Shown one piece after another: positions 23,259-50,794 of a DNA stretch of 51,088 nucleotides. Made by a program: the position numbers and the translations under genes. This DNA comes from a virus. Position 1 is the first letter of the stretch. The number at the start of each line of letters is the position of its first letter. The stretch covers positions 1 to 51,088 of IMG/VR virus record IMGVR_UViG_3300039098_000044. One strand, 5' to 3'. The notes below the pieces were generated by a model that was not told the DNA's origin, did no database searches, and was given only the letters and a program-made list of their open reading frames with translations.

Positions 23259-23268
23259 AGGTCACCTC

Positions 23269-23769: not shown

Positions 23770-23785
23770 TCTGTTTCACCTCCAA

Positions 23786-24700: not shown

Positions 24701-24720
24701 TTATTTTCACCTCTTATTTT

Positions 24721-24754
24721 AAATAAAAAAGGGAAGGAGTTAATCTCCCTCCCT
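24721..24754 (-). terminator. rho-independent terminator after the major capsid gene
   Basis: Minus strand reads GGGAGGGAGA ttaa CTCCTTCCC followed by TTTTTTATTT. Confidence 0.7.
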
Positions 24755-24797
24755 AATTATAGTATAGCACATTTCGCACTAAATGTCAATCTAAATC

Positions 24798-25763: not shown

Positions 25764-25777
25764 TCCTATTCACCTCT

Positions 25778-26404
25778 TTATCTATTTTTTCTAAATTTCC
25801 ACTTCGAATATATCTCAGGTTTTTCACCAGTCTTGCGGCAGTATTCAAGTTCATCAGGACTAAGTCCAAATGTACCATCCTCTACATCTCCACCAGTATC
25901 TGCGCCAGAAATAATACTTGAAGTGTCAACACCAACATTGTTCATTTCAGCAATTAGTTTTGCTCTAATCTTTGCTTCTAAATCGTCAGTGTCATTACTA
26001 GTCGATAAGCCTCTTGCAATGAAATCAAAATCTATATCAGTCGGCTTAATTCCTTTATTAAGCATATCAGATGCTTTATTAAGTACAGCCACCTCATCAA
26101 ATGATTCACCATGTATTACTTTAAGTTGAGCCATCTTCATGTCTAAAAACATTTTAGTCATTTCAACATTCTCATTGCTCCTTTCCGGGTCGGAGTTGAG
26201 TGATTCGTCAACTTGTTGATTAGCATTAGTCACACTTAAGGCTTGCTTTTCTTGTGCTAAAGCTTGAGTTTTTTTAGTATAATCTGATTGTCTCATATAA
26301 CCATTCATAAGTTCATCAACGCTTACAGTTGTTCCATCAGGAAGTTCTACTAAATCCGATTGTTCACCATCAACCTGTGAGTTCGTTTTGTTTTCTACTG
26401 TCAT
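25778..26404 (-). CDS. scaffolding protein
   Basis: 208 aa, acidic and helical, lies between the portal and capsid genes. Confidence 0.5.
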   Translation of the reverse strand: MTVENKTNSQVDGEQSDLVELPDGTTVSVDELMNGYMRQSDYTKKTQALAQEKQALSVTNANQQVDESLNSDPERSNENVEMTKMFLDMKMAQLKVIHGESFDEVAVLNKASDMLNKGIKPTDIDFDFIARGLSTSNDTDDLEAKIRAKLIAEMNNVGVDTSSIISGADTGGDVEDGTFGLSPDELEYCRKTGEKPEIYSKWKFRKNR

Positions 26405-26430
26405 TTAATTGTCCTCCATAGCGAGTCCCT

Positions 26431-28341
26431 TTATGAGTTGCTCGCAATTATCTTGTCTAACTCAGGGAATACAGACAATAATTGTTGTATCTCTTCGTCA
26501 GATAGTGTCTCGATCTCCATTAGTATTTCGTCAGGGATCGTCTTCTCATCTTCTATTATACCATTAATATCGTCATCTGTCAAGCCCTGGTCAGATTGGC
26601 CTTGTTCATAGCCTCTTCTCATTAGCTTGGCATCAGATTCTTTTTGTTTAAGTTTATCATGTTCAGCAGTTAAATCTTCAACTTGCTTAGTTAATGCAGT
26701 AACCATCTCAACCATTTGATTGAGTTGTTGTTCCATAGCTTCAGCCTCTTGATTAAGTTGACCCTCAGCTCTTTGTTGCATTCTAGCAAGAACATCTTGC
26801 TTATTATTAATAGGAACGAATTCCATAATAGCTTCTCTATCAACCATAGGTAATCCATCTTCAGCAGTTGTTTGACCAAGTCTAATCATAAGGTCTAACA
26901 TAGCATTTCTATTAACTGGCATTGTTGAGCCTGCAGTAATTATAATATCAAAGTCAGCAGTTAAGTCTTGAGGAGTAATTGTATCTTGAGTTAGTTTACC
27001 ATTGATATCGCTCATAGAAACTATTCTATCACTCTTCCAAAACTGTTGCATTCTCGCATACCACATATTAGCTAACTGAGCTAATGATTGTTCCATGATT
27101 CTAACTTTTAATCTAATTCTAGCTTGACCAGCTTCTTGTAATGCTAATATAGCTTGAGCTGCAACAACTGAATCTCCAGCTTGACCTCTAGTAGAATTAT
27201 GAATTCCTGCAATTGATTCAATATCATTCTTCATCTCATCAATCTTTGCCTGAATATAATTAGGCATTGTAGGTATTTCCAATCTTCTAACAATAGTACC
27301 TGGGTTGTGTCTAATAACAAGACCATGTTCATTTGTCAATGAATTTCTAGGAATACCTGCATTCTTCTCAACTAACCAAGGAGAGTTTGCAGTAAGCTTA
27401 GCATTATCTATAACTGCATTGTTCAATTCATTTAATGAGAATTGTGGAGATAGTAATTGTTCTACATCACCGCTACCCCAGAATTTAAATGGAACGTCAT
27501 AATCTTTAAATAATACAAATGGGAATTTACCATCCTTATAAGGATTCTGTCTATCTTTTAAAACAATACCTGGTTGTGGAGCTACTGTGATAACTCTACC
27601 TCTAGGATATTTTTTCTTTTTCTTTTCATTACCATATTCATCTGTTCCATCAGCAACCTCAGTATGATCTCTACACCAACATTCTAATATTAAAATTTGA
27701 TTATTAACTGAAGCAGTGGTTTTCTGTGAAACTAAGTCTGGATCAGATACGCCAGTTCCGCTCAAGAACTCAGCTTTATTTGGGAACAATTTCTTAACAA
27801 TATTAACGTTTTTATAAGTGGAATATATAATCCAATCTGCATCCTCCATGGTAGTGGCCATTGGGTCTGGGAAGAAGTTCATAGGGTCAACAAGTATTGG
27901 TGTAACTTGACCTTTCTTATCTTTATTCTTATTCCAAGGTAAATATATAATAGCAGTACCAGTAGTTAAAGCTGTTGTTAAAGCTTTAGGTAACATGATA
28001 CTCATTTTACTTCTATCCCACTCATAATCAAGAGCTGTTTGAACTTTAGAAGCTTTATCTTTACCTTCGCTATTTCTAGCCAATGCTTGAAACTTAGGGT
28101 TATTATCTGTCATAATTGGTCTTATAGTTTCTAATGTTGCATGTATATAATTAGAAATATGATTACTAGCATAATCAGGCTTAGTAACTTTTGTATCTCC
28201 ATTATAAGCATCTATACAAGCCTTATCTAATTGTGTTCTTGAAAGCTTATTTGAGCGAGCTTCATTAAACTTTTGTAATACCCAACTAGATATAATACCC
28301 TCTTGCATTTGGGCATCTGTCATCTTTTTTTCTTTAGCCAT
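26431..28341 (-). CDS. portal protein
   Basis: 636 aa directly downstream of TerL; acidic coiled C-terminus. Confidence 0.65.
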   Translation of the reverse strand: MAKEKKMTDAQMQEGIISSWVLQKFNEARSNKLSRTQLDKACIDAYNGDTKVTKPDYASNHISNYIHATLETIRPIMTDNNPKFQALARNSEGKDKASKVQTALDYEWDRSKMSIMLPKALTTALTTGTAIIYLPWNKNKDKKGQVTPILVDPMNFFPDPMATTMEDADWIIYSTYKNVNIVKKLFPNKAEFLSGTGVSDPDLVSQKTTASVNNQILILECWCRDHTEVADGTDEYGNEKKKKKYPRGRVITVAPQPGIVLKDRQNPYKDGKFPFVLFKDYDVPFKFWGSGDVEQLLSPQFSLNELNNAVIDNAKLTANSPWLVEKNAGIPRNSLTNEHGLVIRHNPGTIVRRLEIPTMPNYIQAKIDEMKNDIESIAGIHNSTRGQAGDSVVAAQAILALQEAGQARIRLKVRIMEQSLAQLANMWYARMQQFWKSDRIVSMSDINGKLTQDTITPQDLTADFDIIITAGSTMPVNRNAMLDLMIRLGQTTAEDGLPMVDREAIMEFVPINNKQDVLARMQQRAEGQLNQEAEAMEQQLNQMVEMVTALTKQVEDLTAEHDKLKQKESDAKLMRRGYEQGQSDQGLTDDDINGIIEDEKTIPDEILMEIETLSDEEIQQLLSVFPELDKIIASNS

Positions 28342-28359
28342 TTGGTTTTACCTCCGTAT

Positions 28360-30120
28360 CTATCTTGATACTTCTTTGTTTGGTGAATCATGATTTGTAT
28401 TACTAGAATCTTCTTGAGGAATATATGCCTCATCAAGTCCTTGCAATGCCATTTGTAAAGCTATTGCTAAAGCCATTACTCTGTCATCATGACAACCAAG
28501 TTGGGCATTTGTAGAACCACTAGGTTCAATTACATAACTCATAAGTTCTTTTATAAGTTCTTTATCATATATCTTTAAATATATCTCTCTAATAAATTCA
28601 GCTAATCTATTTATCATTAGTGGTTTTGTCTTTTTTCCTGTATTCCAACCTAATGACTTAGACCTCTTATCTGTTATTTGATCATATCTTGTTTCATAGA
28701 ATATATTCCAATATTCCATTTTTTTAATTACATTTAAAACTGTGTATCCATGATTATTTTTTTCAACACCTAAGAATGCATTTCCATAGTATCTAGCAAG
28801 TTTAATTAATTCAATACCAAATAGGTCTGGGTCAATATGTCCATGCCATACAGCAACAATATCAAATTTCTGATTTAATACATAAGCACAACTATAGTCA
28901 CCAGTCATTAATCCTTCGGCAACATCAGCACCAATATAATATTGGTCATGTCTTTGTGGTTGCTCCCATATTTCTACATAACCTCTGTCATCTTGTCTAA
29001 ATTTTATAGCACCAAGTTTTGAGTCGATATAACCTAGTTCACCCCTTTTAGCAACTGTAAGATACTTTCTCAAAACAGGTATACTAAACTTAGGTCTACC
29101 AGAACTTAGGAAGGCTTCTCTATCATTGATAGGAAACTCTTGTTTAAATATATCAGTATCACCAAAACATTTATTTGCTATGGCCCACCTTCTCCAATTC
29201 AACTGTTCCCAAGTCAAGTTATATTCTTCCATTAACATAAACTCTTCTGTTCTAACAATATCTTCTTTATAATCAACAAAACTTCTACTAACTTCTTCTA
29301 TTAAAGTTTGTTTATGAGCTTCAGATTTAAATGGCTTAGTACAAGTTGGATCAAATGACCAAGGTAAAAATATAGGTATAAAATCACACGTAGGATCATT
29401 CTTAGCTAATAACCATTGCTCATGATAATATCCACCAATACCATTGGCTGTTGATTCAATTACTATCATAGTATTCATTGCATCAGGTACTGTTTGTATT
29501 AGAGCTGCAACTGTCTTCTCAGGATTTGGGAAGAAGGCTGCCTCAGATACATGAACATTATGATAAGTACCAGAACGTCCGGCTTCTTTAACGTTAGCTG
29601 TACCTATTGCGAACTTACTTCTAAGTCCTGGGTCAGCGTCATTTCTTTCAACTGAATCTTTATCTGGATTCTCAAATACTAAAGCTTTCTCATTACTTTT
29701 AGATTTCAATGGTCTAATTATTCTAGGTAATTCATCATAATATAATTTACTCATATTAAATAAGTTTGTTGATGCATCACCTTCATGTGCTATTATATAT
29801 GTACTTTTAAATTTATTAACCGCTGTATCATGAAACATCATAGCCTCAGTCCAAGTACTTATACCTTGCTGTCGGCTCTTTAGAAATATAAATCTAGGAA
29901 TATTACCATCTCTCATACATTCTAAATATTTTGTGTAAGCAAGTATCTGAGCTTTATTAAATATAAATGGAATTAATTGAGCCTCCTTATTTTTAATCTT
30001 AAGGAAGTTCTCAATATACCATTTTTTATCATGAACAATTCTCCATCGGATTACTTGCTCTTTAGTAAGCTTCTTAGGAGGTATTAAGTATAAAGTTTTT
30101 TTATTCCACTTATATTTCAT
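28360..30120 (-). CDS. terminase large subunit
   Basis: 586 aa; ATPase-like FLKSRQQGISTW and VIESTANG; C-terminal nuclease-like GADVAEG ... CHDDRVMAL; precedes the portal gene. Confidence 0.8.
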   Translation of the reverse strand: MKYKWNKKTLYLIPPKKLTKEQVIRWRIVHDKKWYIENFLKIKNKEAQLIPFIFNKAQILAYTKYLECMRDGNIPRFIFLKSRQQGISTWTEAMMFHDTAVNKFKSTYIIAHEGDASTNLFNMSKLYYDELPRIIRPLKSKSNEKALVFENPDKDSVERNDADPGLRSKFAIGTANVKEAGRSGTYHNVHVSEAAFFPNPEKTVAALIQTVPDAMNTMIVIESTANGIGGYYHEQWLLAKNDPTCDFIPIFLPWSFDPTCTKPFKSEAHKQTLIEEVSRSFVDYKEDIVRTEEFMLMEEYNLTWEQLNWRRWAIANKCFGDTDIFKQEFPINDREAFLSSGRPKFSIPVLRKYLTVAKRGELGYIDSKLGAIKFRQDDRGYVEIWEQPQRHDQYYIGADVAEGLMTGDYSCAYVLNQKFDIVAVWHGHIDPDLFGIELIKLARYYGNAFLGVEKNNHGYTVLNVIKKMEYWNIFYETRYDQITDKRSKSLGWNTGKKTKPLMINRLAEFIREIYLKIYDKELIKELMSYVIEPSGSTNAQLGCHDDRVMALAIALQMALQGLDEAYIPQEDSSNTNHDSPNKEVSR

Positions 30121-30129
30121 TATTCCCTC

Positions 30130-30603
30130 CTATATTTTTTGAAGAACTACATTTAAAGTCTCTATAGCCATTATCTTACCAGCTACATCACATTTTGCAA
30201 ATACCTGGAAGATATCTCCATTCTCAACGTCAATTAAACCTGTTATAGAAATATTCTCAGTCCTAGATTGATTGCTAAATCCATGAGGTGTTTCTGTTCC
30301 TAATATAGGTGAGCCGTTTTTATATAATATATATGATACGTGTACTACAGTTGCACTATCAATTGAAACATCTGACGTACCATCTACCCTAATAACACCA
30401 TCTTCACCGTTATAAGTTAAAGTTCCATCTACACCTGATGTAAATTTATATGATAATCCAGCATCAGTAAATACGCCAGGTATCGCATAATAAGTATCGT
30501 CTGCTATAAATGTTAAATTGTCTGCTACTATTAATGCAAAAAACCCTCTATATCTCAATCCATCCATTTCTATACCTGTGTTATTTGATTCATGTGCCAT
30601 CAC
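30130..30603 (-). CDS. hypothetical protein, MAHESN paralog A
   Basis: N-terminus MMAHESNNTG is shared with 30612..31082. Confidence 0.55.
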   Translation of the reverse strand: MMAHESNNTGIEMDGLRYRGFFALIVADNLTFIADDTYYAIPGVFTDAGLSYKFTSGVDGTLTYNGEDGVIRVDGTSDVSIDSATVVHVSYILYKNGSPILGTETPHGFSNQSRTENISITGLIDVENGDIFQVFAKCDVAGKIMAIETLNVVLQKI

Positions 30604-30611
30604 TTCACCCC

Positions 30612-31082
30612 CTAGTTAAAGTGTAATACTATTTTAGCAAGCACATCTGTACCAGCTACTTTAGTTTCTATACAATGTCCTATCTCTTGAAAATGTTCTT
30701 GAAGTTGTGGAAGAGTACCACCACTAGGTAATTCTAATGTTGCATCTGCTCTACCGTCTGTGTCAGAAGCTTTTACCCAATTACCAGTAGTTGAGGTTGT
30801 AGTATCTTTTAATAATACCTCTGCTATTCCAGAAACCACCACCCAACAATCTTCACCATCAGCTATTCCATCTTCATATATTATACCGATACAATCATAT
30901 AGGTCAGATAGTATTTCAAATCCATCTTCGGTTGTTTCATTTGCCTCCACAAGTGTACCTTTAACTGATGGGGCTCCAGTTAGGTTTTTAAGTTTAATTG
31001 CCCTACCACCAATAGGTGTATTGAAACTATTCGTTAATTGTTCATCTAAAAAATCACCTGTTAAATTCGATTCATGAGCCAT
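30612..31082 (-). CDS. hypothetical protein, MAHESN paralog B
   Basis: N-terminus MAHESNLTG; ATGA-type overlap with the upstream gene. Confidence 0.55.
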   Translation of the reverse strand: MAHESNLTGDFLDEQLTNSFNTPIGGRAIKLKNLTGAPSVKGTLVEANETTEDGFEILSDLYDCIGIIYEDGIADGEDCWVVVSGIAEVLLKDTTTSTTGNWVKASDTDGRADATLELPSGGTLPQLQEHFQEIGHCIETKVAGTDVLAKIVLHFN

Positions 31083-31738
31083 TAGCTAAAAGTCACCCCC
31101 TCTTTCAATACCATAAATGGAACAAAAGTACCAGTACCATCATCCACAAGATATAGTTCATATTCTCCACTACCTTCTGAAGTTTGTACAAGATAAAATT
31201 CATTTAATTCAAAGTATTCTCTAAATCTAGAATCACAACCTGAATTTCTTACTATTGCTTCAGATGTGAAACCTATTGTTTGTTTATTTATAGTTACCCA
31301 TAATTGTTGATTAGTTATATTATCTAAAGTATCAAATGCTAATATTTTAATATCTTCATTTGCTTCATATAATATATTTGTTGTATCAGCATCATATACA
31401 TCTTGGAAAAACGCTGATATTTTTATATATGTGCCAGCTTCAAAGTCTCCACCAGTAGGTGTACCTGCAACATCACATACTACGAAATCATAGTTATCAG
31501 CAAGTACATCTGTTTCTGGTTCCACTAAAAGCATTAATCCACATTCAACCAATAAAGCAAGTTCAGTATTACCCCATAAATACCACATATTATTATGATA
31601 AACATAAACAGCCTGTGGATCGTCCATTACTAATAATACTGCTCCTTCTTTTTGTTTTGGCACTGGTATTCCTACTTCTGCGGATAATTGTGAATTTAGG
31701 CATCTAGTTGTACTAATATCAATTATATTCTTTGCCAT
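31082..31738 (-). CDS. hypothetical structural protein; N-terminus paralogous to 32209..32382
   Basis: MAKNIIDISTTRCLN..PKQKEGAVLLVMDDPQAVYVYH compared with MALNIIDISFQTCLN..PKQTEGMILLVVDDPQAVYIYH. Confidence 0.5.
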   Translation of the reverse strand: MAKNIIDISTTRCLNSQLSAEVGIPVPKQKEGAVLLVMDDPQAVYVYHNNMWYLWGNTELALLVECGLMLLVEPETDVLADNYDFVVCDVAGTPTGGDFEAGTYIKISAFFQDVYDADTTNILYEANEDIKILAFDTLDNITNQQLWVTINKQTIGFTSEAIVRNSGCDSRFREYFELNEFYLVQTSEGSGEYELYLVDDGTGTFVPFMVLKEGVTFS

Positions 31739-32196
31739 TATAATACCTCCACAGAAGTTACAATTTGTGAACCAACTGTAGACATATAAAACGCTACTGT
31801 ATTAACTCCCGCAGGAATTGTAAATTCATATTCATATGGTGCAGATGGGTCGGCTGATAAATCTGAATATGCACCTGCAACATAAGCAACAGATGAAGTA
31901 CCGCCACCTTGAATTGGCAATTCACTAATTAATTCAACTAGACCAGCAAATCTAAACCTATCACCATTTGAAGATTCTGTAACTCTTATAACGTCGTTAA
32001 CACTTAAAGTACTTACATCAATTAATATAGTTAATAAACCAGCACCTTGATCGTTAAATATAACATTTGGACTAGCTACAAAAGTACTAGTTCTATATGT
32101 TCCATCCCATAACACGGCTGGTTCTTCTTCTGCACCACCTTGTTTTAATTTTCCTAATATTCCGAGGCCGATCGGATTAAATAAATTATATCCCAT
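31738..32196 (-). CDS. fibre-like protein; C-terminal domain paralogous to tail fibre 19799..20674
   Basis: ..VTESSNGDRFRFAG..SAPYEYEFTIPAGVNTV..QIVTSVEVL compared with ..ITQSSNNGRYKICG..SAPYEYEYTIVAGTNTI..GIVTSVEVL. Confidence 0.5.
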   Translation of the reverse strand: MGYNLFNPIGLGILGKLKQGGAEEEPAVLWDGTYRTSTFVASPNVIFNDQGAGLLTILIDVSTLSVNDVIRVTESSNGDRFRFAGLVELISELPIQGGGTSSVAYVAGAYSDLSADPSAPYEYEFTIPAGVNTVAFYMSTVGSQIVTSVEVL

Positions 32197-32208
32197 TTAT
32201 CTCACCTC

Positions 32209-32382
32209 CTATAATGTCCAAGCAATCCATGCACCATCATGATAAATGTAAACAGCTTGTGGGTCATCTACTACTAATAGAATCATTCCTTCAGTTTGCT
32301 TTGGTTTTGGTAATCCCGCTTCAGCATCCAAATCTGCATTTAAACATGTTTGAAAACTTATATCGATAATATTAAGTGCCAT
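32209..32382 (-). CDS. 57-aa ORF (below the track cutoff), paralog of the N-terminus of 31082..31738
   Basis: Hand translation gives MALNIIDISFQTCLNADLDAEAGLPKPKQTEGMILLVVDDPQAVYIYHDGAWIAWTL; TAATG overlap with the TerS stop. Confidence 0.55.
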   Translation of the reverse strand: MALNIIDISFQTCLNADLDAEAGLPKPKQTEGMILLVVDDPQAVYIYHDGAWIAWTL

Positions 32383-32936
32383 TATTCCTCATCCTCCATA
32401 TTGTCGATATCAATCTCTTCGTCGTCATCGACTTCTTCATATTCAACATCCTCAACATCAACTAAATCTAATATTTGTTGTTCGAATGTTTTAATAGTAA
32501 CTTCCTTTCTAACTTCCTGTTTTGGTTTATGTCCAGCTCTATCAAGTAAATCTTTAGCTGCCTGTAAAGCCACCCCATCGATTGGACTATCAAGTAACTT
32601 AACCATCTTATCTAGAGCTGCTGCACTTGTAGCGTGCATTCTTGCTCTAACAATATTAGCTTCTTCTCTTTGAAAGTCTTCTATATACTTTTTAATATCT
32701 GGATCATTAAACCACTTCCTAACTGTAGAAGATGTAACTTGTAATAAACTAGCTATCTGAGCTGTTGTATGAGTTCCCATTATAAACAATTGAACTGCCC
32801 GACCTATCCTAGGGCTTTTGGTTAACAATATATTTATATAATCCGGATTCTCTTTTGCTATTGTCAATGCTAATTCATCTATTTCTTCTTCAGTGGGTTT
32901 CTCTTTAAGTTTCTCTTTGATTTCTTTTTTATTCAT
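32382..32936 (-). CDS. terminase small subunit (HTH)
   Basis: HTH TAQIASLLQVTSSTVRKWF followed by AAKDLLDRAGHKP and an acidic tail; ATG 32936 has GGAGG 5 nt upstream (track start 32972 has none). Confidence 0.55.
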   Translation of the reverse strand: MNKKEIKEKLKEKPTEEEIDELALTIAKENPDYINILLTKSPRIGRAVQLFIMGTHTTAQIASLLQVTSSTVRKWFNDPDIKKYIEDFQREEANIVRARMHATSAAALDKMVKLLDSPIDGVALQAAKDLLDRAGHKPKQEVRKEVTIKTFEQQILDLVDVEDVEYEEVDDDEEIDIDNMEDEE

Positions 32937-32977
32937 AGTAACCTCCATCGAGGTCTTGATATTCGCCATCATTATAA

Positions 32978-33142
32978 TTAATCATATCGTTCCACCTTTT
33001 CTTTGATGACCTCTAATTCATCTTTCATATCATCCATTTCTTCTGCCATTAGTAAAGATAATTTTTCTAAAAATAATTCATAGTCCATTAAATGAACCTT
33101 TGCATCCTCTATTAATTCCATTACTCTTTCATACACGTTCAT
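32978..33142 (-). CDS. 54-aa helical acidic ORF (below the track cutoff)
   Basis: GGAGGTGACT precedes the ATG; MNVYERVMELIEDAKVHLMDYELFLEKLSLLMAEEMDDMKDELEVIKEKVERYD. Confidence 0.5.
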   Translation of the reverse strand: MNVYERVMELIEDAKVHLMDYELFLEKLSLLMAEEMDDMKDELEVIKEKVERYD

Positions 33143-33169
33143 AGTCACCTCCAACGAATGTCGTTGTAT

Positions 33170-33529
33170 TTATTTTGCCACTTCGTTATCATATATATCC
33201 ACCTGATCAAACCCGTCGTCCTCTATTTCTGAGCTGTGAGTATAAATTCCAGTAGGTGGATTATAATTCTCTTCATCAAAAACCTCAGCAGTATATTTAT
33301 TAAGATCATTAAATTCTTCTATCTCTTTTCCAGAGCCCTGCATAGGAACTCTATAAACATCTGCTAGGTCAGCATAGTTCATTTTAACACTCTCTGGTGG
33401 GCCAGAATTATCGCTCTTATGAGTCAGTATATAAATCTTATTATAAAGCTTAGTTCTCAACTCAGTAGAATTATTATACATATATAACATCAACACACAT
33501 ATAACTAAAAACTTAATTATTACAAGCAT
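33170..33529 (-). CDS. membrane-anchored hypothetical protein
   Basis: N-terminal TM helix MLVIIKFLVICVLMLYMY. Confidence 0.55.
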   Translation of the reverse strand: MLVIIKFLVICVLMLYMYNNSTELRTKLYNKIYILTHKSDNSGPPESVKMNYADLADVYRVPMQGSGKEIEEFNDLNKYTAEVFDEENYNPPTGIYTHSSEIEDDGFDQVDIYDNEVAK

Positions 33530-33846
33530 TCACTCACCCCTGTTACTCTAATGTAACTTGATATGAACCGAATTAGTTCTACTAGTTCTTCACTTCCACC
33601 AGGTTGTTCAGGAGTATTACCACTCTCATATAACAATGCATGAATAATCTCATGTTCTAATAATTCCTGGCGGTAGGCCTCTGAATGTAAAACTCCTTCT
33701 TCACTTCTACGCGGGATACATATAACTTTTGTTATAAGATCACAATAAGCATCAGCATTAGAATCATTCATATCAGGATCAGAATCTAATAATCTATCTG
33801 GCTCAATAATAGAATAGACTTTGTGAAGTATCATTATTTTTTTCAT
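33520..33846 (-). CDS. small HExxH metallopeptidase-like protein; first gene of the minus-strand operon
   Basis: LLEHEIIHALLYESG. Confidence 0.45.
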   Translation of the reverse strand: MKKIMILHKVYSIIEPDRLLDSDPDMNDSNADAYCDLITKVICIPRRSEEGVLHSEAYRQELLEHEIIHALLYESGNTPEQPGGSEELVELIRFISSYIRVTGVSECL

Positions 33847-37981: not shown

Positions 37982-38251
37982 ATGGACATTAAGGACTTTA
38001 AGCCTACTCATAAGATTAAAAAGAAAATAGAAACCGATGGTACATTAGGTAAAGCTAAAAATGGTGAATTAATGGTATTTAAAAATAAACATGACAGATA
38101 TGAAATGTGGATTATACGTAACAACGCACCCTATTATGTAACTGAAGTACATTCTATGAACGCAGTTATAAATTTTGTACCAGCAAGATATATTATCACA
38201 GAGATATATACCTCAGTTATCAGAAGAAAACTGATGGGGAGTATCAAATAA
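37982..38251 (+). CDS. hypothetical protein; possible divergent tail-family member
   Basis: SD taggagg; C-terminus TSVIRRKLMGSIK matches only the first half of the family tail. Confidence 0.55.
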   Translation: MDIKDFKPTHKIKKKIETDGTLGKAKNGELMVFKNKHDRYEMWIIRNNAPYYVTEVHSMNAVINFVPARYIITEIYTSVIRRKLMGSIK

Positions 38252-40010: not shown

Positions 40011-40295
40011 ATGAACATCACCGATAGAATGATAGTTACATTAAAATCTCATGGAACAAAATCTTCAATTGTTTTACCAAGAGAAGAGGCACAAGAATTA
40101 ATTTCAGTATTTGATGAAATGATAGAACTTGCTGGCCCAGAAAACGATGTTGAAATAACTAGTAAATATTTAACTAACAAAGAATATTTAGTATTAGTAA
40201 ACTTCAATTTAGTTGAAACTGGTATTATTGGTGCATTAGCTGTAGAAAATGCAAAAAGAGCATTAGCCCTTACTAAGGTACATTACAATGTCTAG
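40011..40295 (+). CDS. hypothetical protein
   Basis: SD taggagg upstream. Confidence 0.6.
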   Translation: MNITDRMIVTLKSHGTKSSIVLPREEAQELISVFDEMIELAGPENDVEITSKYLTNKEYLVLVNFNLVETGIIGALAVENAKRALALTKVHYNV

Positions 40296-41073
40296 TCTGT
40301 CAGTAGTAGTCCCTAATAAGGCCTGCGTAAATGACTGCAAGTTCTGCATAGCTAAAATGAACGCAGCAATCAAGTTAGAAGAGTACCCTGATCTTCTTGA
40401 GCAGGAAACATTAGCTTACTCAAAAAGAATGCAGTATGCCCGCGATATGGGCACTGATACATTAGTATTCACAGGCAACACAGAACCCCAAATAAATATG
40501 CATTTCATATTACGAGTTATGCAAATTAACGAGACAATCAGAACACCATTTGTTAAAGTTGAAATCAAGACAACTGGTGTAATGTTAAATAAAGAAAAAC
40601 TAGCGATATTAAAGGATATCGGAATCGATACAATCTCATTGAGCCTCAGTGGGCTCACGTATGAAACTAACTTCAACTATAATGGGACCCCGGAGTCTAT
40701 TAGATTTAATATAATAGAGTTCGCAAAAAACGTAAAGGATATTAATCTAAATCTTAGATTATGTCTAAACTTAACAGACTTCTATGACGCTTGGGATTAT
40801 TATGACATTATTCATTTCTGTCAATATGTAATGTTAGCAGATCAAATAACATTCCAAGAACTATATGAGTCAGCAGAAAATACTATCCAAGATATGTGGA
40901 TTGCATCTCACAAGGTAAGTGAAACTAAACTAGAAGAAATTAAAAATGCACTTAATACAGAAGAGAACCAAAACATTCATATTAACAATCACTGTCAAGG
41001 TGAGAAACCAATCTTACAGCCTAACTGTAAGCTATACAGTCTTTGGGATAAGAAAAGTAGTCTAATTTATTAG
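40288..41073 (+). CDS. radical SAM domain protein
   Basis: N-terminal CVNDCKFC (CxxxCxxC) cluster motif and TLVFTGNTEP (GGEP-like); 261 aa. Confidence 0.6.
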   Translation: MSSLSVVVPNKACVNDCKFCIAKMNAAIKLEEYPDLLEQETLAYSKRMQYARDMGTDTLVFTGNTEPQINMHFILRVMQINETIRTPFVKVEIKTTGVMLNKEKLAILKDIGIDTISLSLSGLTYETNFNYNGTPESIRFNIIEFAKNVKDINLNLRLCLNLTDFYDAWDYYDIIHFCQYVMLADQITFQELYESAENTIQDMWIASHKVSETKLEEIKNALNTEENQNIHINNHCQGEKPILQPNCKLYSLWDKKSSLIY

Positions 41074-41083: not shown

Positions 41084-41353
41084 ATGTTTAAAATTGGAGA
41101 TATGGTATATATAAATAAAAAACTTGCAAAAGATGAATCATACAAATATTATTCAAATATACGAAGAAGAATAGTAAAATATGGAGTTGGCCCATTTAAA
41201 ATAAAAAAAATAGAAGATGGTGAATTTAAATATTATTTAGATTTAAAAGAAGATATTCTTAATGAATTTTCAGAAAAAGAAATAATATTAGTAAAACCCC
41301 CAACATTAATATTAACAAAACTTAAAAAAGCATCTCAAAACAATAACAAATAA
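41084..41353 (+). CDS. small SH3/KOW-like protein, tail family member 4
   Basis: MFKIGDMVYINKK N-terminus; C-terminus PTLILTKLKKASQNNNK. Confidence 0.75.
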   Translation: MFKIGDMVYINKKLAKDESYKYYSNIRRRIVKYGVGPFKIKKIEDGEFKYYLDLKEDILNEFSEKEIILVKPPTLILTKLKKASQNNNK

Positions 41354-42938: not shown

Positions 42939-43166
42939 ATGTTTAAAGTAGGAGATAAAGTCAAAAAAATAACAGGCTCAAATATAGGTAGAATAGCAAT
43001 AATAACAAGAGCATATAAAGCAAATGATGGAGACCTATATGTGCACGCACAATGGGAAAAAACATCACAAATATATTGTTACTATGCAAGAAGATTTGAA
43101 TTAGTTCATTCACCTTCACTAATCACATCAAGACTTAAGAAGGCATCTCAACATATAACACAATAA
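42939..43166 (+). CDS. small SH3/KOW-like protein, tail family member 5
   Basis: ATG 42939 preceded by aaggag; MFKVGDKVKK N-terminus; C-terminus PSLITSRLKKASQHITQ. Confidence 0.75.
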   Translation: MFKVGDKVKKITGSNIGRIAIITRAYKANDGDLYVHAQWEKTSQIYCYYARRFELVHSPSLITSRLKKASQHITQ

Positions 43167-43182: not shown

Positions 43183-44448
43183 ATGAGTATTGGAATACTA
43201 GGAGCCGCCACAGAAGAAAGTGCCAACAAGGCAGTTAAACAGGTTCTCGTAGAACTTGGTTACAGGCGCAACATATTGCAAGAGCAATATAACAGGATTA
43301 ATAACGATGATCCCTACAAAAAGGTACATCCAACCCTCAAAGAGCTAGAGGGAGTTTACGACTTAGCAATAGTAAACTACCCAAGTTGGTATGAGGAATT
43401 CGTGGACATGTTATCAGTGTCTATCGATGAAACTATTCCAGAAGAATTAAAGGAACAAATCAATACTGAATTTGAATCTGGAGAAGGTACTATACTTCAG
43501 TCAAAGAAACTAATTGATTTAGAAACGCAACTCAAAGAACTGACACCAGCTATATTTGACACTGGTAAATTCGCTAATGGACAAAAGTTTTTAAAGTATT
43601 GTAAAAAAGTATTTGAAGCTATGACTCCAGAGAATAAAGCTATTACTCAGGATCAAGATTGGTATAAGTTATTTGAATCAAAGAATACTACCAACTCAGA
43701 AACAAAGGTTGTAATTACGTCATCTAAAATTTCATTCTTAGCTATGGCATCAGTATTTGACAACCCAGACTATACTTCTTGTCAGGACCTTAGCAAGCAC
43801 AAATACACAGATATTTATATCAATGGTATTGCTGGTAATCTATTAGATCAAAATAGTTTAATGTGTTACGTTACAAAAGGTAACATGAAAAAAATAAGAT
43901 CAAAAGGAAACGTTGTAACTGAAGAGCATCAAACAATGATTGTAAGATTATTTTTGAGAATGCTAAAGTCTGATGGTAAATATTATATTGTACCCGACAG
44001 ATCATATCCACATAAAACCTACACAGCCTCTATAGTAGCATTGTTAAAAGAACTATGCGAAGACATAGAGGATTTGGAAGTGGCTATGTTCGAAAGCTAC
44101 AACGAAGAACAAAGTGGTTCATCAGATGAATTAAATATTGACACTGAAGATTCATTTATAGCAGTATATGATGGAGAGGAAGTTATACTTCCACAACCAT
44201 TTATCTGGGACGATGGACTAGATGGATTCTCTGAAAGAAAATGTGGAGACAGTTCATGTCCAAATACAAACGCCAATGGATTATATAATTGCCATACATG
44301 CCCTAGAGGTGGGGCAGTTACAATGTTAGAATATCATGATAATATTACAAATATACAATCCTATCCAGAAGGTGGAACAAAAGTAAAAAGAACTAAATCA
44401 ATTAGACGAGTAAGTCCATCTTGGAATAAGAAAGATAAAGAGGTATAA
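43183..44448 (+). CDS. hypothetical 421-aa protein with C-terminal Cys cluster
   Basis: SD aaaggag; CGDSSCPNTNANGLYNCHTCPRGG near the C-terminus. Confidence 0.6.
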   Translation: MSIGILGAATEESANKAVKQVLVELGYRRNILQEQYNRINNDDPYKKVHPTLKELEGVYDLAIVNYPSWYEEFVDMLSVSIDETIPEELKEQINTEFESGEGTILQSKKLIDLETQLKELTPAIFDTGKFANGQKFLKYCKKVFEAMTPENKAITQDQDWYKLFESKNTTNSETKVVITSSKISFLAMASVFDNPDYTSCQDLSKHKYTDIYINGIAGNLLDQNSLMCYVTKGNMKKIRSKGNVVTEEHQTMIVRLFLRMLKSDGKYYIVPDRSYPHKTYTASIVALLKELCEDIEDLEVAMFESYNEEQSGSSDELNIDTEDSFIAVYDGEEVILPQPFIWDDGLDGFSERKCGDSSCPNTNANGLYNCHTCPRGGAVTMLEYHDNITNIQSYPEGGTKVKRTKSIRRVSPSWNKKDKEV

Positions 44449-44450
44449 TT

Positions 44451-45407
44451 ATGCCAGCAGAGTATCTAAAGCAGTCATTAATACATCTTTTAAATATCCA
44501 AAGCTTTTCAAAAGAAGAAACTAAAGTTCAAGAATTTGTTATAGAACATTTAGTTAAATTTGGTTTCAAAGTACAAATGGATAATATCGGTAATGTATAT
44601 GCAACTCGTGGAGAAACAGAATCTTACCCATTACTCAACGCACACATGGACTCTGTTAAGGGCTCATTTGGGCAAAGTAAAATCTTCAGAAGTTATTATG
44701 ACAATTGTAGAGATTGTGGTTACAGCGATGCTGGGACAAAGCCATTCTGTTATATTAAGAATGAAGTAGTTAAATACCTCACAGCTCAGAATTGTCCAAA
44801 ATATATTCACTTCGATGACTATGAAAAACAATATGGATATAAAGTTGGCGGTGAAGAAGAAGAACAGGAAGAAGAGGTTAAACTATTCGAACTGTATTAC
44901 AACTCAAAAACAAAACAAATCACTAGCAATAAAGTGAGACCAATGGGTGGCGATGATAAATGTGGAATAGCAATTGCACTAGACATTGCCAAGTCAACAG
45001 ACATCCCAATGAAAATACTATTTACAGTACAAGAAGAAATAGGTTGTGTAGGCTCAGAATATGCAATGAAGGCATACCCAACATTCTTCGATGATTGTGC
45101 TTATGGAATAACAATAGATAGACGAGGTGGTAATCACATATGTGTAACTACTGGCTCAGAAAGAAACGCTAATAACTACTTCATAGCTGAATTAGCTAAG
45201 TGGGCTGTTATTAGTGGAATCATGCCAGCATTTGAACGAGGTTTAATGAGTGATAATTACAACCTTAAATATCTAGTGCCAAACTTTATCAATGTATCTG
45301 GTGGTTACTATGATGCGCATAGAGACAGCGAATATATTAAATATGATGAAGTAAAACTCATAAGAACTTGGATAAAAAACTTTATATTAAAAAGTGATTT
45401 TGAATAA
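44451..45407 (+). CDS. M42/M20-like metallopeptidase
   Basis: LLNAHMDSV, MGGDDKCGIAIAL and FTVQEEIGCVGS metal-ligand-type motifs in the canonical order. Confidence 0.55.
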   Translation: MPAEYLKQSLIHLLNIQSFSKEETKVQEFVIEHLVKFGFKVQMDNIGNVYATRGETESYPLLNAHMDSVKGSFGQSKIFRSYYDNCRDCGYSDAGTKPFCYIKNEVVKYLTAQNCPKYIHFDDYEKQYGYKVGGEEEEQEEEVKLFELYYNSKTKQITSNKVRPMGGDDKCGIAIALDIAKSTDIPMKILFTVQEEIGCVGSEYAMKAYPTFFDDCAYGITIDRRGGNHICVTTGSERNANNYFIAELAKWAVISGIMPAFERGLMSDNYNLKYLVPNFINVSGGYYDAHRDSEYIKYDEVKLIRTWIKNFILKSDFE

Positions 45408-47228: not shown

Positions 47229-47426
47229 ATGTTTAAAGAAGATGATAATGTTATAATTAAAAATGGTTCTTATAAAGGAACTATTGGAAAAATAAATGCA
47301 ATGGGAGAACAACTATGTTCTATTAAAACAGATGATGGATCACTTTGCATATTAATTAAAAACATAGAAAAATATTATACTTCTATAATATGTAAAAGAC
47401 TCATATCAGCCTCGAAAGGAAGATAA
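47229..47426 (+). CDS. small SH3/KOW-like protein, tail family member 6
   Basis: MFKEDDNVIIKNGSYKGTIGKI N-terminus; C-terminus TSIICKRLISASKGR. Confidence 0.7.
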   Translation: MFKEDDNVIIKNGSYKGTIGKINAMGEQLCSIKTDDGSLCILIKNIEKYYTSIICKRLISASKGR

Positions 47427-47428
47427 TC

Positions 47429-47791
47429 ATGGCTTACATTGAAAAAACTAGATTTTATCAAAACTCAACAGAAGCCCCAACTAAAACTAAATTTGGTTTT
47501 AAAGCATCATATATAAAACCAAAACAACTTACGTGGGCCGAAAAGCTTGCTCAGAAGTATGAGGGTGATTGGTTTGAATATAAATACACAGCATTTTGGT
47601 TTAGTGAAAATCCAAAACATTATACAGTTAAATTAGTTGCTGATGAAGGTATATTACAATTAGTATCAGAAGATGAAGAATATATTAGTGCTTTTTATAC
47701 TAAAAGTGATTATGACCTTATTATTATTTTAAAAAATCTAATTAAAATATCAATAATAAAAACAAGATTAAGAAATACAATACATCGCTGA
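47429..47791 (+). CDS. small protein, tail family member 7 (different N-terminal domain)
   Basis: C-terminus ISIIKTRLRNTIHR; stop followed by the hairpin CGCT gatat AGCG. Confidence 0.6.
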   Translation: MAYIEKTRFYQNSTEAPTKTKFGFKASYIKPKQLTWAEKLAQKYEGDWFEYKYTAFWFSENPKHYTVKLVADEGILQLVSEDEEYISAFYTKSDYDLIIILKNLIKISIIKTRLRNTIHR

Positions 47792-47808
47792 TATAGCGGG
47801 AGAACTAA

Positions 47809-48522
47809 ATGAATTTATTAGAAATGTTAAACGAAGATTTAAATACCGATAGCAACTCAAATGAACGACCAGGGTTCACTAAGTTTGAAGTAGGCGATAC
47901 ATTAATCACTGTATTGGCTATTGGAACACCTAGATGGACACACTTCATTAAATCTGCTGGCAAATTAACAGTTAACTGCCCAGGTCAGAATTGTCCTGTA
48001 TGTTCTATCATTAGAGCTGCTAAAAAGAACGACCAAAAAACAGACCATAAATCAACTAAGAAGTATGGTATGTTAGTATATAATCACAACTCAGGTGAAC
48101 TAGAAATCTTAGACCAAAAGATTACCTTCATCAGAAACTTCCAAAGTATGTTGCAAGAATTGAAAGAAGACGCTGCTGAAGCTATTATGGAAGAAAATCA
48201 AGAATTAACTAAAGAAGAAGCTATGGAAAAAGTAGATACTAGCGTTTATGATCCCACTCAATTCGTAACAAGAATTAGAAGAAAAGGTACTGGAATGAAT
48301 GATACTGAGTATTCTTTTAAGAAGGCTCCTAAGTCAAATCAAAAACCAACACCAGAGGACATTGTTGAGAAAGCTAACGAACTTAATATTAATGAATTAT
48401 GGTTAGTGTTAGACAATGATCAATTAAAACAATTATTAGCTGGAAAAACTCTTAAAGAAATTTTTAATCCTGAAGAAGCTGACGAAGAATCTGATGGACT
48501 TGGAGTAGACTTTACAAAATAA
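47809..48522 (+). CDS. ssDNA-binding protein-like (zinc-finger type, acidic tail)
   Basis: NCPGQNCPVCS Cys cluster and acidic C-terminus EEADEESDGLGVDF; lies in the replication module. Confidence 0.4.
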   Translation: MNLLEMLNEDLNTDSNSNERPGFTKFEVGDTLITVLAIGTPRWTHFIKSAGKLTVNCPGQNCPVCSIIRAAKKNDQKTDHKSTKKYGMLVYNHNSGELEILDQKITFIRNFQSMLQELKEDAAEAIMEENQELTKEEAMEKVDTSVYDPTQFVTRIRRKGTGMNDTEYSFKKAPKSNQKPTPEDIVEKANELNINELWLVLDNDQLKQLLAGKTLKEIFNPEEADEESDGLGVDFTK

Positions 48523-48534
48523 GTAGGTGAAATA

Positions 48535-48918
48535 ATGGGAGATAAATTATCAAATTCAATTGAAGCGAAAGAAATAGTTTTGTATTATTATGAGATGCTA
48601 GAGTCACAAGTTGACAAATCAATAGCTCGATATATAAATATGGCAAAACATTTATTAAAGACATACTCAAAAGAAGAAGTGCTTTATACAATAGACCATT
48701 GTGTTAAACATCAACCTTCTGGGGGCATGTATAGTTTTGGATTCATTGGAACAATGATAGAAGAAATATCTGCCCAATATAGATCAGATGTAGCAAAAGA
48801 AATAATCAAGAAGGCTGAAGCTAACTCAAAAGAAATTGGTGAATTGCCCAAGGCTTCTGATAACTCTAAGAAACTTAAAAATTTCGGTATCAAAAAGGAG
48901 TTTGATTGGGATGCGTAA
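48535..48918 (+). CDS. hypothetical replication-module protein
   Basis: SD taggtga; position before the helicase. Confidence 0.55.
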   Translation: MGDKLSNSIEAKEIVLYYYEMLESQVDKSIARYINMAKHLLKTYSKEEVLYTIDHCVKHQPSGGMYSFGFIGTMIEEISAQYRSDVAKEIIKKAEANSKEIGELPKASDNSKKLKNFGIKKEFDWDA

Positions 48919-49177
48919 AGATTTAAATAAAATGGAACACCTCGAAGTATTAGCAGTAGGAAGTAAATTTTATGCTTCTGATGTAAACAAATATATGGTT
49001 TGTAAAAATAAATATCCAACTGTAATAAACATATATACTGACGAATGTTTTCAAAACTTTGAAAAAACAATAAAATGTAACAGCAATTGGTTTAACTCAT
49101 TTAAAAATAAATTTTATAATATGGGAAGTGTATCAATAATCCGCATCAAGCTCAATCAGGCTGCTCAACGCCAATAG
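48911..49177 (+). CDS. small protein, tail family member 8
   Basis: ATG 48911 overlaps the upstream stop; C-terminus VSIIRIKLNQAAQRQ. Confidence 0.65.
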   Translation: MRKDLNKMEHLEVLAVGSKFYASDVNKYMVCKNKYPTVINIYTDECFQNFEKTIKCNSNWFNSFKNKFYNMGSVSIIRIKLNQAAQRQ

Positions 49178-49187
49178 GCGGAGGGAT

Positions 49188-50546
49188 ATTATCAGCAATA
49201 TAACGGCTGCTGCATCTGAGCGGCAAATATTAGGAATCTGCATACAGAACCCAGATAAAATAGTTAACTGCGAATCAGAAGGATTAATTTATGATCACTT
49301 CGGAATTGAAGCAAACAAATATATTTATATGGTTTGTATGTATTTATATGGTAAAAAACTCAAACCAACCCCAGCAATGATTCTAGAAGTCCTACCAAGC
49401 GATAGAGCTAAGAAAGCTGTTGAAGAAGTAGGTGGACTTGAATACTTAATGGGCTTTGATAGAGTTAGAGTTAAGTCTGAAAATATAGTAATGTATATTG
49501 AGAAGATAAGACAAGCACATACTCGTAGAGAAATCATAAGGATATGTGAAGAAACAACTAAAAAAATGGAAGATGATTCTGCAAATGTTCTTAACCCTGC
49601 AGAGCTTATATCAGTCGTTGATAAAAAACTAACTGACATTAATGTAGGTAGTGCATTATCAAGTGACGTCTACAAAATAGGTGATGACACAGATAGAATA
49701 CTCGCGGAAAGGGCTGAAACCCCAAATGCAATACCAGGACTAGAAGTAGGCTTTCCTAAGTTTGATAGAATAACTAATGGAGGACAACCAGGAGATTTAA
49801 TCTTTGTGGCTGCTCGTGCTAAAACTGGTAAATCAGTATCACTAACTAATTGGGCAGTTAAGCTAGGACTAATAGATAAACTACCAATTCTATATATAGA
49901 CACTGAAATGGACTCTCGTGAGAATGAGGATAGGATAATAGCATTATTAACCGGAATACCTCACAGCGAGATAGTATCAGGGCTTTATATGTTAGACACT
50001 GAATATGGAACCTCAGAAGAGAAATTAGATAAAATAGCTGAAGCTAAACAAATCATGAAAGATGGTAATCTATATCATATATATATGCCAGGATTTACTT
50101 TAGAGAAAGTAGTAGCTATTACTAGACAATTTCAAATGCAACATGGAATAGTAGCATTATTCTTTGACTACTTAAAATTCCCTGCATCTGAAATGGCAAC
50201 ATTAAAAACAGTTCAAGAATGGCAAATGTTAGGATTCTTAGCAAGTGGATTAAAAGACCTTGCTGGAATATTAAAGATTCCTGTTTACAGTGCTGTTCAA
50301 GAAAATAGAAGTGGAATAGATACCCAAAGAAAGAATGCTGGGAACATAGCTGGCTCAGATAGAATACTTCAACTTGCAACTAAGTTAATATTCTTGTACA
50401 ATAAAGACCCTGAAGAGATAGCTAAACATGGGCCTGACGCAGGCAATCAATGGTTATATATAGCATTTCAAAGGAATGGTGAGAGTGACGTTGATCCAAT
50501 TCCATTAAGATTTTATAAAAATATATTAAGGCAGGTGGAAGTCTAA
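49188..50546 (+). CDS. dnaB: replicative DNA helicase (DnaB-type); start upstream of first ATG
   Basis: N-terminal AASERQILGICIQNPDKI lies upstream of ATG 49329; Walker A ARAKTGKS, Walker B-like VALFFDYL; the only in-frame starts after SD GGAGGG are ATT, ATC or ATA. Confidence 0.75.
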   Translation: MISNITAAASERQILGICIQNPDKIVNCESEGLIYDHFGIEANKYIYMVCMYLYGKKLKPTPAMILEVLPSDRAKKAVEEVGGLEYLMGFDRVRVKSENIVMYIEKIRQAHTRREIIRICEETTKKMEDDSANVLNPAELISVVDKKLTDINVGSALSSDVYKIGDDTDRILAERAETPNAIPGLEVGFPKFDRITNGGQPGDLIFVAARAKTGKSVSLTNWAVKLGLIDKLPILYIDTEMDSRENEDRIIALLTGIPHSEIVSGLYMLDTEYGTSEEKLDKIAEAKQIMKDGNLYHIYMPGFTLEKVVAITRQFQMQHGIVALFFDYLKFPASEMATLKTVQEWQMLGFLASGLKDLAGILKIPVYSAVQENRSGIDTQRKNAGNIAGSDRILQLATKLIFLYNKDPEEIAKHGPDAGNQWLYIAFQRNGESDVDPIPLRFYKNILRQVEV

Positions 50547-50794
50547 TGAGAATTCGTGGAATTAATTATACAATTGGAGAAAAACTTATATTCAATGAAC
50601 GAGAATGTATAGTAGTTTCATTTGATGAAATGGATAATTGGGAACCAATGTTAGTTCGATATACAGATGGTTCTATTGATGCAGACAACTATCAGGTTTG
50701 GGTTGACACTGACGATTTTGATTGTGAAGCTATACAAAAACCTTATATGTCATCAATCAATAAAAGATTATTAAAAGCAGCACGCCATGAATAA
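50546..50794 (+). CDS. small protein, tail family member 9
   Basis: ATGA overlap with the dnaB stop; C-terminus MSSINKRLLKAARHE; overlaps the primase ATG. Confidence 0.7.
   Translation: MRIRGINYTIGEKLIFNERECIVVSFDEMDNWEPMLVRYTDGSIDADNYQVWVDTDDFDCEAIQKPYMSSINKRLLKAARHE

Follow-up and report, generated by a model that had tools for sequence, protein, structure and literature searches.

Small early proteins of a 51-kb phage genome share a C-terminal peptide that differs from one related phage to the next

Ten small open reading frames with a common C-terminal peptide

The DNA analyzed here, IMG/VR record IMGVR_UViG_3300039098_000044 from position 1 to 51,088 (referred to below as the window), is a complete phage genome of ~51 kb, circularly closed and with a G+C content of 34%, in which ten small open reading frames (ORFs) end in a common peptide, hereafter the tail. 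The genome is considered circular because the primase ORF begins at 50788 and runs on at position 1. An identical contig is present at NCBI (LGVF01615797.1, assembly GCA_001263485.1). The plus strand carries early, replication and nucleotide-metabolism genes from 34.6 to 51.1 kb and from 0 to 12.2 kb, and the minus strand carries long structural genes (12248..33846, i.e., 12.2-33.8 kb). No phage with similar DNA was found in INPHARED. By DnaB, the nearest cultured phages, Geobacillus GBK1 and Bacillus Andromeda-like phages, reach only ~40% identity, and relatives have been binned with Clostridia genomes, e.g., Romboutsia, Ruminococcus and Oscillospiraceae, so that the host probably also belongs to the Clostridia.

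The ten ORFs, numbered f1 to f10, lie on the plus strand and encode proteins of 65-131 amino acids (aa) that share the C-terminal peptide [ST][LIV]Ixx[KR]LxxA[AS], which is ~11-13 residues long and always in the frame of the ORF. The first of them along the circle, f10 (37982..38251, 89 aa), carries its tail TSVIRRKLMGSIK at 38210..38248, 0 residues from the stop. It is followed by f4 (41084..41353, 89 aa, of the MFKIGD... barrel type), located directly 3' of a radical-SAM gene (40288..41073) and ending in PTLILTKLKKASQ (41300..41338), and by f5 (42939..43166, 75 aa; tail PSLITSRLKKASQ, 43113..43151), which lies 5' of a conserved gene pair (43183..44448 and 44451..45407). Then come f6 (47229..47426, 65 aa; tail TSIICKRLISASK, 47379..47417) and f7 (47429..47791, 120 aa; tail ISIIKTRLRNTIH, 47747..47785), the body of the latter not being recognizably KOW-like. 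The stop of f8 (48911..49177, 88 aa; tail VSIIRIKLNQAAQ, 49130..49168) overlaps the Shine-Dalgarno sequence of the helicase gene dnaB, and that of f9 (50546..50794, 82 aa; tail MSSINKRLLKAAR, 50747..50785) overlaps the primase start at 50788. Beyond the origin of numbering, f1 (758..1027, 89 aa; tail PTLITTKLRKAAQ, 977..1015) has a hairpin over its stop (1016..1032), ahead of the Shine-Dalgarno sequence of a kinase gene, f2 (1586..1864, 92 aa, of the GHSG...GHCW barrel type; tail KSIIYTKLTEAAN, 1820..1858) overlaps the DnaE start at 1857, and f3 (4851..5246, 131 aa; tail ISVIHSKLTQAAT, 5202..5240) has an N-terminal extension.

Nine of these ORFs had been listed in an earlier annotation made from the letters alone (the original prediction), and all nine translate as it stated, with the tails where it placed them; f10 is an addition. 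A six-frame search with the strict pattern [ST][LIV S]I..[KR]L..[AT][ASI] returned exactly nine matches, all on the plus strand and ending 2-5 residues ahead of a stop codon, whereas in 50 shuffled versions of the window the average was 0.06 matches and never more than 1 was obtained. Hence the tail does better than shuffled controls, as the original prediction required of it. The tenth member was added by a looser pattern, and 0-4 variable residues separate the motif from the stop among the members. The motif is therefore non-random and frame-locked. All ten tails have a net charge of +1 to +4, and a Shine-Dalgarno-like GGAG/GAGG is found 6-12 nt 5' of the start in all ten ORFs. The ORF at 9945..10610 (221 aa), in which a C5 cytosine methyltransferase signature is faintly recognizable, has a superficially tail-like end, ...RSIIPNKLCKHIVDICE; this likeness was judged to be due to chance and the ORF was not retained as a member.

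As named in the original prediction and confirmed by Pfam and PHROGs, the genes between which the small ORFs are set encode a DnaG-type primase, a guanylate-kinase-like kinase, a DnaE-type polymerase (1857..4847, plus strand; domains PHP, Pol III alpha, fingers, HhH and OB), a PD-(D/E)XK nuclease and a DnaB-type helicase (49188..50546, plus strand), the polymerase and the helicase not belonging to the tail family. The order f8-DnaB-f9-primase-f1-kinase-f2-DnaE-f3-nuclease, described in the original prediction as a strict interleaving, is correct in the window, strict alternation being limited to this genome and its closest relative. A distance of 0-20 nt between family stop and next start, or an overlap, was likewise confirmed for f1, f2, f3, f5, f6, f7 and f9, and applies to f8 provided that DnaB starts at the ATT/ATC codons of 49188-49193. 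The rule is broken by f4, after which a hairpin and a tRNA cluster come next.

The DnaB frame is open and conserved (…SERQILGICIQNPDKIVNCESEGL…) over 46 codons 5' of its first ATG at 49329, and a GGAGG at 49180-49184 precedes ATT ATC at 49188-49193, with the same layout in two relatives (L014 and L016, see below). The start of DnaB is probably one of these two non-canonical codons rather than the ATG, and the automatic DnaB calls (402-405 aa) would then be too short. Hairpins were also observed at some of the junctions. Two of these stable RNA hairpins extend across a small-ORF stop codon and reach the Shine-Dalgarno sequence of the following gene, at f1/kinase (1016-1032; -13.4 kcal/mol, z -2.9) and at f8/DnaB (49160-49196; -13.3 kcal/mol, z -2.6), and a third lies 3' of f4 (41352-41372; -10.5 kcal/mol, z -4.7). 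The junction hairpins may couple the translation of replisome genes to termination on the small ORF.

Then, the fold of the bodies was considered. The Pfam KOW model PF00467 gave 17.7 bits for f5 (E 0.003) and 17.5 bits for f6, both under the cut-off of 22.3, and no Pfam match was obtained for the other members. An AlphaFold2 model of f5 computed with its paralogs as alignment (predicted local distance difference test, pLDDT, 69) shows strands at residues 7-10, 19-27, 33-39, 45-49 and 53-55 and a separate C-terminal helix at 61-73, which corresponds to the tail. In Foldseek, the best matches of the f5 barrel are the KOW barrels of eS4, NusG and Spt5 (E 2e-3 to 1e-2), and many unnamed small phage proteins are matched too, with E-values of only the order of 1e-3. 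At least half of the ten members are predicted to be KOW/SH3-like five-strand barrels. The SH3/KOW-type mini-barrels announced in the original prediction are in this way supported by AlphaFold2 and Foldseek for f1, f2, f4, f5 and f6, with no match at a curated threshold. The bodies of these five would share the fold of small KOW/SH3-like phage barrels (Pfam KOW, the “MotB-like” PHROG, weak BFVD matches), although the matched proteins are not known to carry a shared tail. When the bodies of f3, f7, f8, f9 and f10 were compared with the barrel core by hhalign, no signal was obtained, nor for the controls, the method being powerless at such divergence, and a single-sequence AlphaFold2 model of f7 was unusable (pLDDT 40). 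The view that f3 and f7, as unrelated bodies, prove the tail to be a transferable module is thus left unproven by these comparisons.

Besides, the family appears to be undescribed. Nothing significant was found for the members in PHROGs, NCBIfam or PADLOC, and the full-text literature searched contained no account of a family like this one. When the ten members were run as a profile against 1.84 billion (1.84e9) representative proteins, the search retrieved these ten and two eukaryotic repeat artefacts with a similar string, while word-seeded searches of 5.8e9 proteins retrieved only members from the window, from the L014/L015 phage and from L016. The search profiles contained 10 and 36 members, and the family hits returned were all already in the query profiles. 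This is in line with the original prediction, in which neither the tail nor the architecture was recognized as described.

Genome-specific tails on orthologous bodies

Relatives of the window could be reached only through DnaB, and form a clade of ~50 kb phages with 50-75% DnaB identity; an initial IMG/VR scan with a single DnaB sequence had returned relatives at ≤34% identity only, none of them with tails. Small ORFs, for the most part KOW/SH3-like, are retained by these phages within the replication module, and the tail differs by genome, at least six further tail types being present. The closest relative, L014/L015 (also Ga0193960_1000047 and IMGVR_UViG_3300019768_000006; DnaB 75%), has a near-identical gene order, in which small ORFs again separate the same replisome genes. 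Its ten small ORFs end in [PK]I[LI]xKFxxL[FL], and none of them has the tail of the window. Eight small ORFs end in [PS]IIxxLLEV[LI] in L016 (DnaB 69%) and eight in SPIxxIK[IV]K in L067 (61%); L117 (56%) has 7-8 small ORFs with KxDL[FY]x[LI]A[KN], L095 (52%) has 5-6 in tandem with [ED]xxFW[RK][ED]V, and L123 (50%) has seven with [KR]E[ED]NE[IV]*, the asterisk marking the stop. Up to 8-9 residues follow the motif in L067 and L117. Weaker shared tails were found in L018 and L017, and many other relatives have no shared tail. Among the latter, the few barrel proteins of L019 end at the last strand, and the tail is therefore an add-on rather than a part of the fold. When families were detected blindly, 2 of 200 random draws of 15 C-termini contained a family of at least four, against families of 5-8 at the tail-bearing loci. 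On the DnaB tree, the tail-bearing loci occupy at least three separate branches.

The L123 locus, which was binned with Romboutsia, provides a particular case (6502-8356, 14257-14460 and 8890-9486). Its small-protein tails, ...KEDNEI* and ...EENEV*, resemble the acidic end of its own SSB-like protein, ...GEDEQFEV*, which hints that these tails may use the docking site of the SSB tail.

Gene order is less constant than the original prediction had supposed. Tandem runs of 2-6 members are present in L016, L067, L117, L095 and L123, and orthologs shift position, as illustrated by the best match of the f4 body, ORF 10797 of L014, which sits between DnaB and primase in that genome. Together, the tandem runs and the moving orthologs make a fixed pairing of each small protein with its downstream gene unlikely.

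Bodies were compared after removal of the last 15 residues. The strongest similarities between bodies are those between genomes: the f2 body matches ORF 12797 of L014 with z 22, and the latter matches ORF 1961 of L067 with z 11.4 (the direct comparison of f2 with ORF 1961 remaining below z 5), while f3 matches L014 16067 with z 14, f4 matches L014 10797 with z 9.9 and f8 matches L014 9144 with z 9.1. In these ortholog pairs (body z 9-22) the tails score ~0, as illustrated by L014 16067, which carries the tail MNPIKQKFIDLF. Conversely, tail similarity, in BLOSUM62 units per site, is 1.94 within genomes against 0.25 between them, a difference reached in none of 2000 permutations of the genome labels. 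Hence the tails are genome-specific and the bodies are orthologous across genomes, and the presence of different tails on orthologous bodies shows that the two parts evolve separably.

The tail is conserved as a peptide, its residues being encoded by different codons, as the original prediction had noted. In four genomes, the fraction of identical tail residues that use the same codon was 0.44, 0.42, 0.39 and 0.54, for expectations from codon usage of 0.37, 0.44, 0.39 and 0.48, respectively. Because this fraction lies at the codon-usage expectation, selection acts at the peptide level, and the likeness of the tails is due neither to recent conversion tracts nor to a nucleotide signal; gene conversion was rejected by this test in all four genomes. 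Taken literally, the expectation that the tail would be conserved in related phages fails, since each relative has its own, which strengthens a functional reading rather than weakening it. Indeed, a motif “not conserved in relatives” can be strongly selected, and the proper test is a comparison of within-genome with between-genome similarity. As far as we can tell, the combination of many paralogs per genome, a tail private to the genome and a tail that changes in concert between relatives is new.

Possible roles of the tail

The main argument drawn from these comparisons is that the tails of each genome must fit something specific to that genome. We tentatively favor, with a probability of about 0.45, a tail that serves as a recognition or docking motif for one lineage-specific partner, preferably a phage-encoded hub of the early or replication module. 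The heads would differ from one small protein to the next, and through the common tail they would all be recruited to a single site. If the site on the hub drifted, every tail in the genome would follow, so that related phages would end with private tails, and no small protein, be it old, duplicated or recently gained, would function without the local tail. We infer that the tail binds protein, that there is a single partner and that this partner is encoded by the phage within the replication module. A phage-encoded partner is favored because essential host hubs are too conserved for such a fast turnover of the motif, and docking on an early or replication protein because the genes sit in that module and because the L123 tail resembles the acidic end of its own SSB-like protein. 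The common docking or tagging peptide proposed in the original prediction is in this respect upheld in kind, through the private tails, the orthologous bodies with different tails and the randomized synonymous sites; no hub was identified among the helicase, polymerase, SSB or host factor that it had named.

Several results weigh against docking on a single hub. Presence/absence profiling found no convincing partner, and when DnaB, primase, the SSB-like protein and a 165-aa protein were examined for indels or columns specific to tail-bearing genomes, only scattered, unconvincing columns emerged. Tail chemistry varies widely, being basic and predicted helical in the window, acidic in L123 and strand-like (IKIK) in L067 as judged from the sequence pattern only, so that a single conserved type of binding site is not obvious. 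The hydrophobic moment of the window tails is ordinary (0.35, for a background of 0.30 ± 0.15), and family members do not always adjoin replisome genes in the relatives. Moreover, codon choice inside the tails (e.g., at 998-1000, 1841-1843, 47400-47402 and 49151-49153) is biased at two positions: the conserved Leu is CTC in 4/9 members against 6% genome-wide, and the conserved Ile is never ATT against 35% genome-wide, ATC being over-used. These biases hint at an extra constraint at the nucleotide or translation level.

Three further observations bear on the search for a partner. At column 169 of a 70-locus DnaB alignment, at least 80% of the tail-less relatives have Phe, and six of the seven tail-bearing genomes, on three branches, have Lys, Asp or Glu; this is a single column, and the pattern may be due to chance. 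A short DnaB was considered as a mark of tail-bearing genomes, and hence of the hub, and was discarded: the length is an artefact of the non-ATG start, and L118, a locus with no tails, shares this start region. A replacement of a ubiquitin-like/ThiF module by the tail family was rejected as well. Five tail-bearing loci are devoid of the ThiF and beta-grasp genes that ~20 tail-less relatives have, but L095 and L123 have both.

Among known systems, the tail family resembles in kind the peptides that dock proteins on a replisome hub. Sliding-clamp motifs (QL[SD]LF, the PIP box, the gp45-binding tails of T4 gp43, gp33 and gp55) and the acidic tails of SSB and T7 gp2.5 are conserved across wide taxa. 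As in these systems, where the motifs dock on one replisome hub, a short terminal peptide is found here on several proteins in a replication-module setting, and in L123 the tail [KR]E[ED]NE[IV] resembles the SSB-like end EDEQFEV of the same genome. However, the tail of the window fits no such consensus, is basic rather than acidic and is private to its genome. The window tails have neither the Gln anchor nor the aromatic pair of the beta-clamp/PIP motifs (QL[SD]LF, QLxLxL, Qxx[LIM]xx[FY][FY]), and no clamp gene was found among the window proteins scanned, a scan that covered only part of the ORFs. An acidic tail of the SSB type is found in the L123 tail type only. Adaptors of AAA+ proteases also combine a variable body with a short C-terminal peptide, the C-terminal LRVVK of SspB binding the N-domain of ClpX. 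The ends ...IKVVK* and ...IKIKL* of L067 look strand-forming in a comparable way; unlike SspB, a single adaptor, there are 8-10 paralogs here, no evidence of a link with a protease was obtained, and LRVVK bears no likeness to the tails of the remaining genomes.

Three rival readings, namely an enzyme tag, mutual binding of the tails and a packaging address, retain this logic with another partner. Concerted change would equally be expected if a single enzyme recognized the tails, and the tail could instead be an enzyme tag, either a degron timing the removal of early proteins or a site of processing or modification, for which the peptidase (44451..45407) and the radical-SAM protein (40288..41073) are candidates. 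The position of f4 directly after the radical-SAM gene and of f5 directly before the 421-aa/peptidase pair is in line with this, as is the presence of members at that pair in L014, L117 and L018. We nevertheless hold an enzyme tag to be quite improbable. Unlike ssrA-type degrons, which end in a free carboxylate (e.g., LAA-COOH), the motif does not form the very end of the protein, 0-4 residues following it here and up to 8-9 in L067 and L117, and these 0-9 variable residues make a degron that needs a free C-terminus unlikely. Most members are distant from both enzymes, and the 421-aa/peptidase pair is also found in tail-less relatives. The 261-aa radical-SAM protein has no SPASM domain and matches no peptide-maturase family above cut-off, since only the generic radical-SAM core is matched by the maturase models, with scores far under their thresholds (24 against 450 bits for DynA). 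Precursors of ribosomally synthesized and post-translationally modified peptides (RiPPs) are not indicated either, as only f4 adjoins the radical-SAM gene and the members are folded proteins of 65-131 aa. Somewhat easier to accept, while still improbable, is that the tails bind one another, forming mixed oligomers (rings or bundles) of small proteins whose tails co-evolve mutually with no separate hub. A concerted change inside a closed set of paralogs is what this predicts, no separate partner was detectable, and small barrels of the Sm/KOW type often oligomerize. Nevertheless, the net basic charge of all ten window tails (+1 to +4) disfavors their packing together, the tails would make only ~3 helical turns, and those of L123 are short, acidic and typical of ligands docking on another protein.

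The remaining explanations are less probable. In T4, the internal proteins IPI, IPII, IPIII and Alt are late or structural proteins with an N-terminal capsid targeting sequence (CTS) that is cleaved by the prohead protease and conserved in T4-like phages. By analogy with these and with the cargo peptides of encapsulins, the tail could be a packaging address loading small proteins into the procapsid for injection. The logic fits, since in T4 a number of varied and rapidly evolving small proteins are sent to one partner by a short peptide that they have in common, and a capsid or scaffold partner could co-evolve with it. Unlike the CTS, an N-terminal peptide of ~10 residues with a prohead-protease site, the tail is C-terminal, differs between close relatives and is accompanied by no cleavage signature or protease-site-like element; all members belong to the plus-strand early/replication block, the structural genes lie on the minus strand (12248..33846), and nothing links the tails to structural proteins. 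A packaging address is thus highly improbable. A signal in the DNA or RNA, be it a promoter, a terminator, a processing site or an element of translational coupling, with an incidental peptide would account for the over-used CTC and ATC codons and for the stable hairpins at f1/kinase, f8/DnaB and after f4 (z -2.6 to -4.7). These hairpins are however 3' of the tail and not within it, the motif is always in the ORF frame and adjoins the stop, its conservation follows amino-acid classes (K/R, A/S, I/L/V), the variation at third codon positions agrees with codon usage in four genomes, and the spacing from the conserved Leu codon to the next start ranges from ~14 to ~40 nt. A promoter or other DNA-level motif was rejected on the frame-locking, the randomized synonymous sites and the variable spacing, and we give a nucleotide signal hardly any credit. 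Equally little credit is given to the absence of any common function, the likeness within a genome resulting from recent tandem duplication or neutral homogenization. Recent duplicates do exist as neighbors (L123 7902/8129, L117 12054/12384, L067 1961/2224). Still, most bodies within a genome have diverged past recognition while their tails remain alike, orthologous bodies bear different tails in other genomes, and the randomized synonymous sites imply long purifying selection on the motif, so that this explanation is largely refuted by the comparison of orthologs and tails and by the same-codon test.

Docking on a phage hub could also be part of a wider scheme, which we regard as rather doubtful: a lineage-private “address code” in which the tail and its receptor would co-evolve, and into which small binder domains, for the most part KOW/SH3-like barrels, would be plugged as a set that can grow and be exchanged, recruiting many targets or activities to one phage machine (replisome or processing enzyme). 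Tail and receptor would diversify fast as a pair, possibly under the pressure of an arms race or of superinfection exclusion. Its logic would be comparable to that of cohesin-dockerin pairs or of viral adaptors recruiting host factors. Dockerins are calcium-binding domains of ~70 residues on secreted cellulosome enzymes. As there, many proteins of one organism carry the same module, the cohesin-dockerin pair being species-specific and co-evolving, whereas the tails are 11-13 residues long, belong to cytoplasmic phage proteins and have no sequence relation to dockerins. The function of most small early phage genes is not known, and here 8-10 of them per genome are linked by one feature that can be read in the sequence and that changes in concert. 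If the tail is a docking tag, the peptide could serve as a bait for the hub and hence give access to the function of the whole class of small proteins. It would also provide a natural case of a fast-diversifying peptide-receptor pair within a virus, and orthogonal tag-receptor pairs could be reused as tools.

Other genes and signals of the region

The gene at 47809..48522 was called SSB-like in the original prediction, a putative label that is based on a weak PHROG match (E 1.3e-4) and an acidic C-terminus. Searches of PDB sequences with this protein and with the 421-aa and 127-aa neighbors returned no match.

Downstream of f4, ARAGORN predicts tRNAs for Pro, Phe and Trp (41824-42078) in a cluster region extending over 41800-42520. 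A looser Rfam scan adds two further short tRNA-like genes at 42188-42248 and 42327-42388 (46 and 44 bits, for a cut-off of 29), and a hairpin resembling a T-arm is found at 42496-42514. No RNA family other than tRNAs was returned by Rfam.

The region 43183-45407, downstream of f5, contains a protein with no detectable family (43183..44448; 421 aa here, 421-544 aa across the clade) and an M20/M42-like peptidase (44451..45407), a pair that is kept clade-wide. In most relatives that carry the pair (L019, L068, L069, L123 and ~20 other loci), and not in the window, it is flanked by a tandem beta-grasp (ThiS-like) protein ending in ...IKGN and by a ThiF/E1-like enzyme. Together, these genes look like a phage-borne module for the activation of a protein C-terminus, of the ubiquitin-like or MccB-like kind.

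An HNH/NUMOD4 endonuclease gene interrupts DnaE in L017, L018, L019, L067 and L069 and leaves it as two ORFs, a layout suggestive of an intron or of a homing endonuclease that is free-standing. In the window DnaE is unsplit, and an HNH endonuclease gene is present at 45480-45974. Immediately 5' of the latter, a perfect extended sigma-70-type promoter (TTGACA, 17 nt, TG-TATAAT) lies at 45415-45443, and a strong terminator-like hairpin, GGGCTGACttcgGTTAGCCC, with a T-rich tail (5 T in 8 bases) is found at 47174-47193, immediately 5' of f6. Given this promoter and this hairpin, the block from f6 to the nuclease is possibly separate and may form its own transcription unit.

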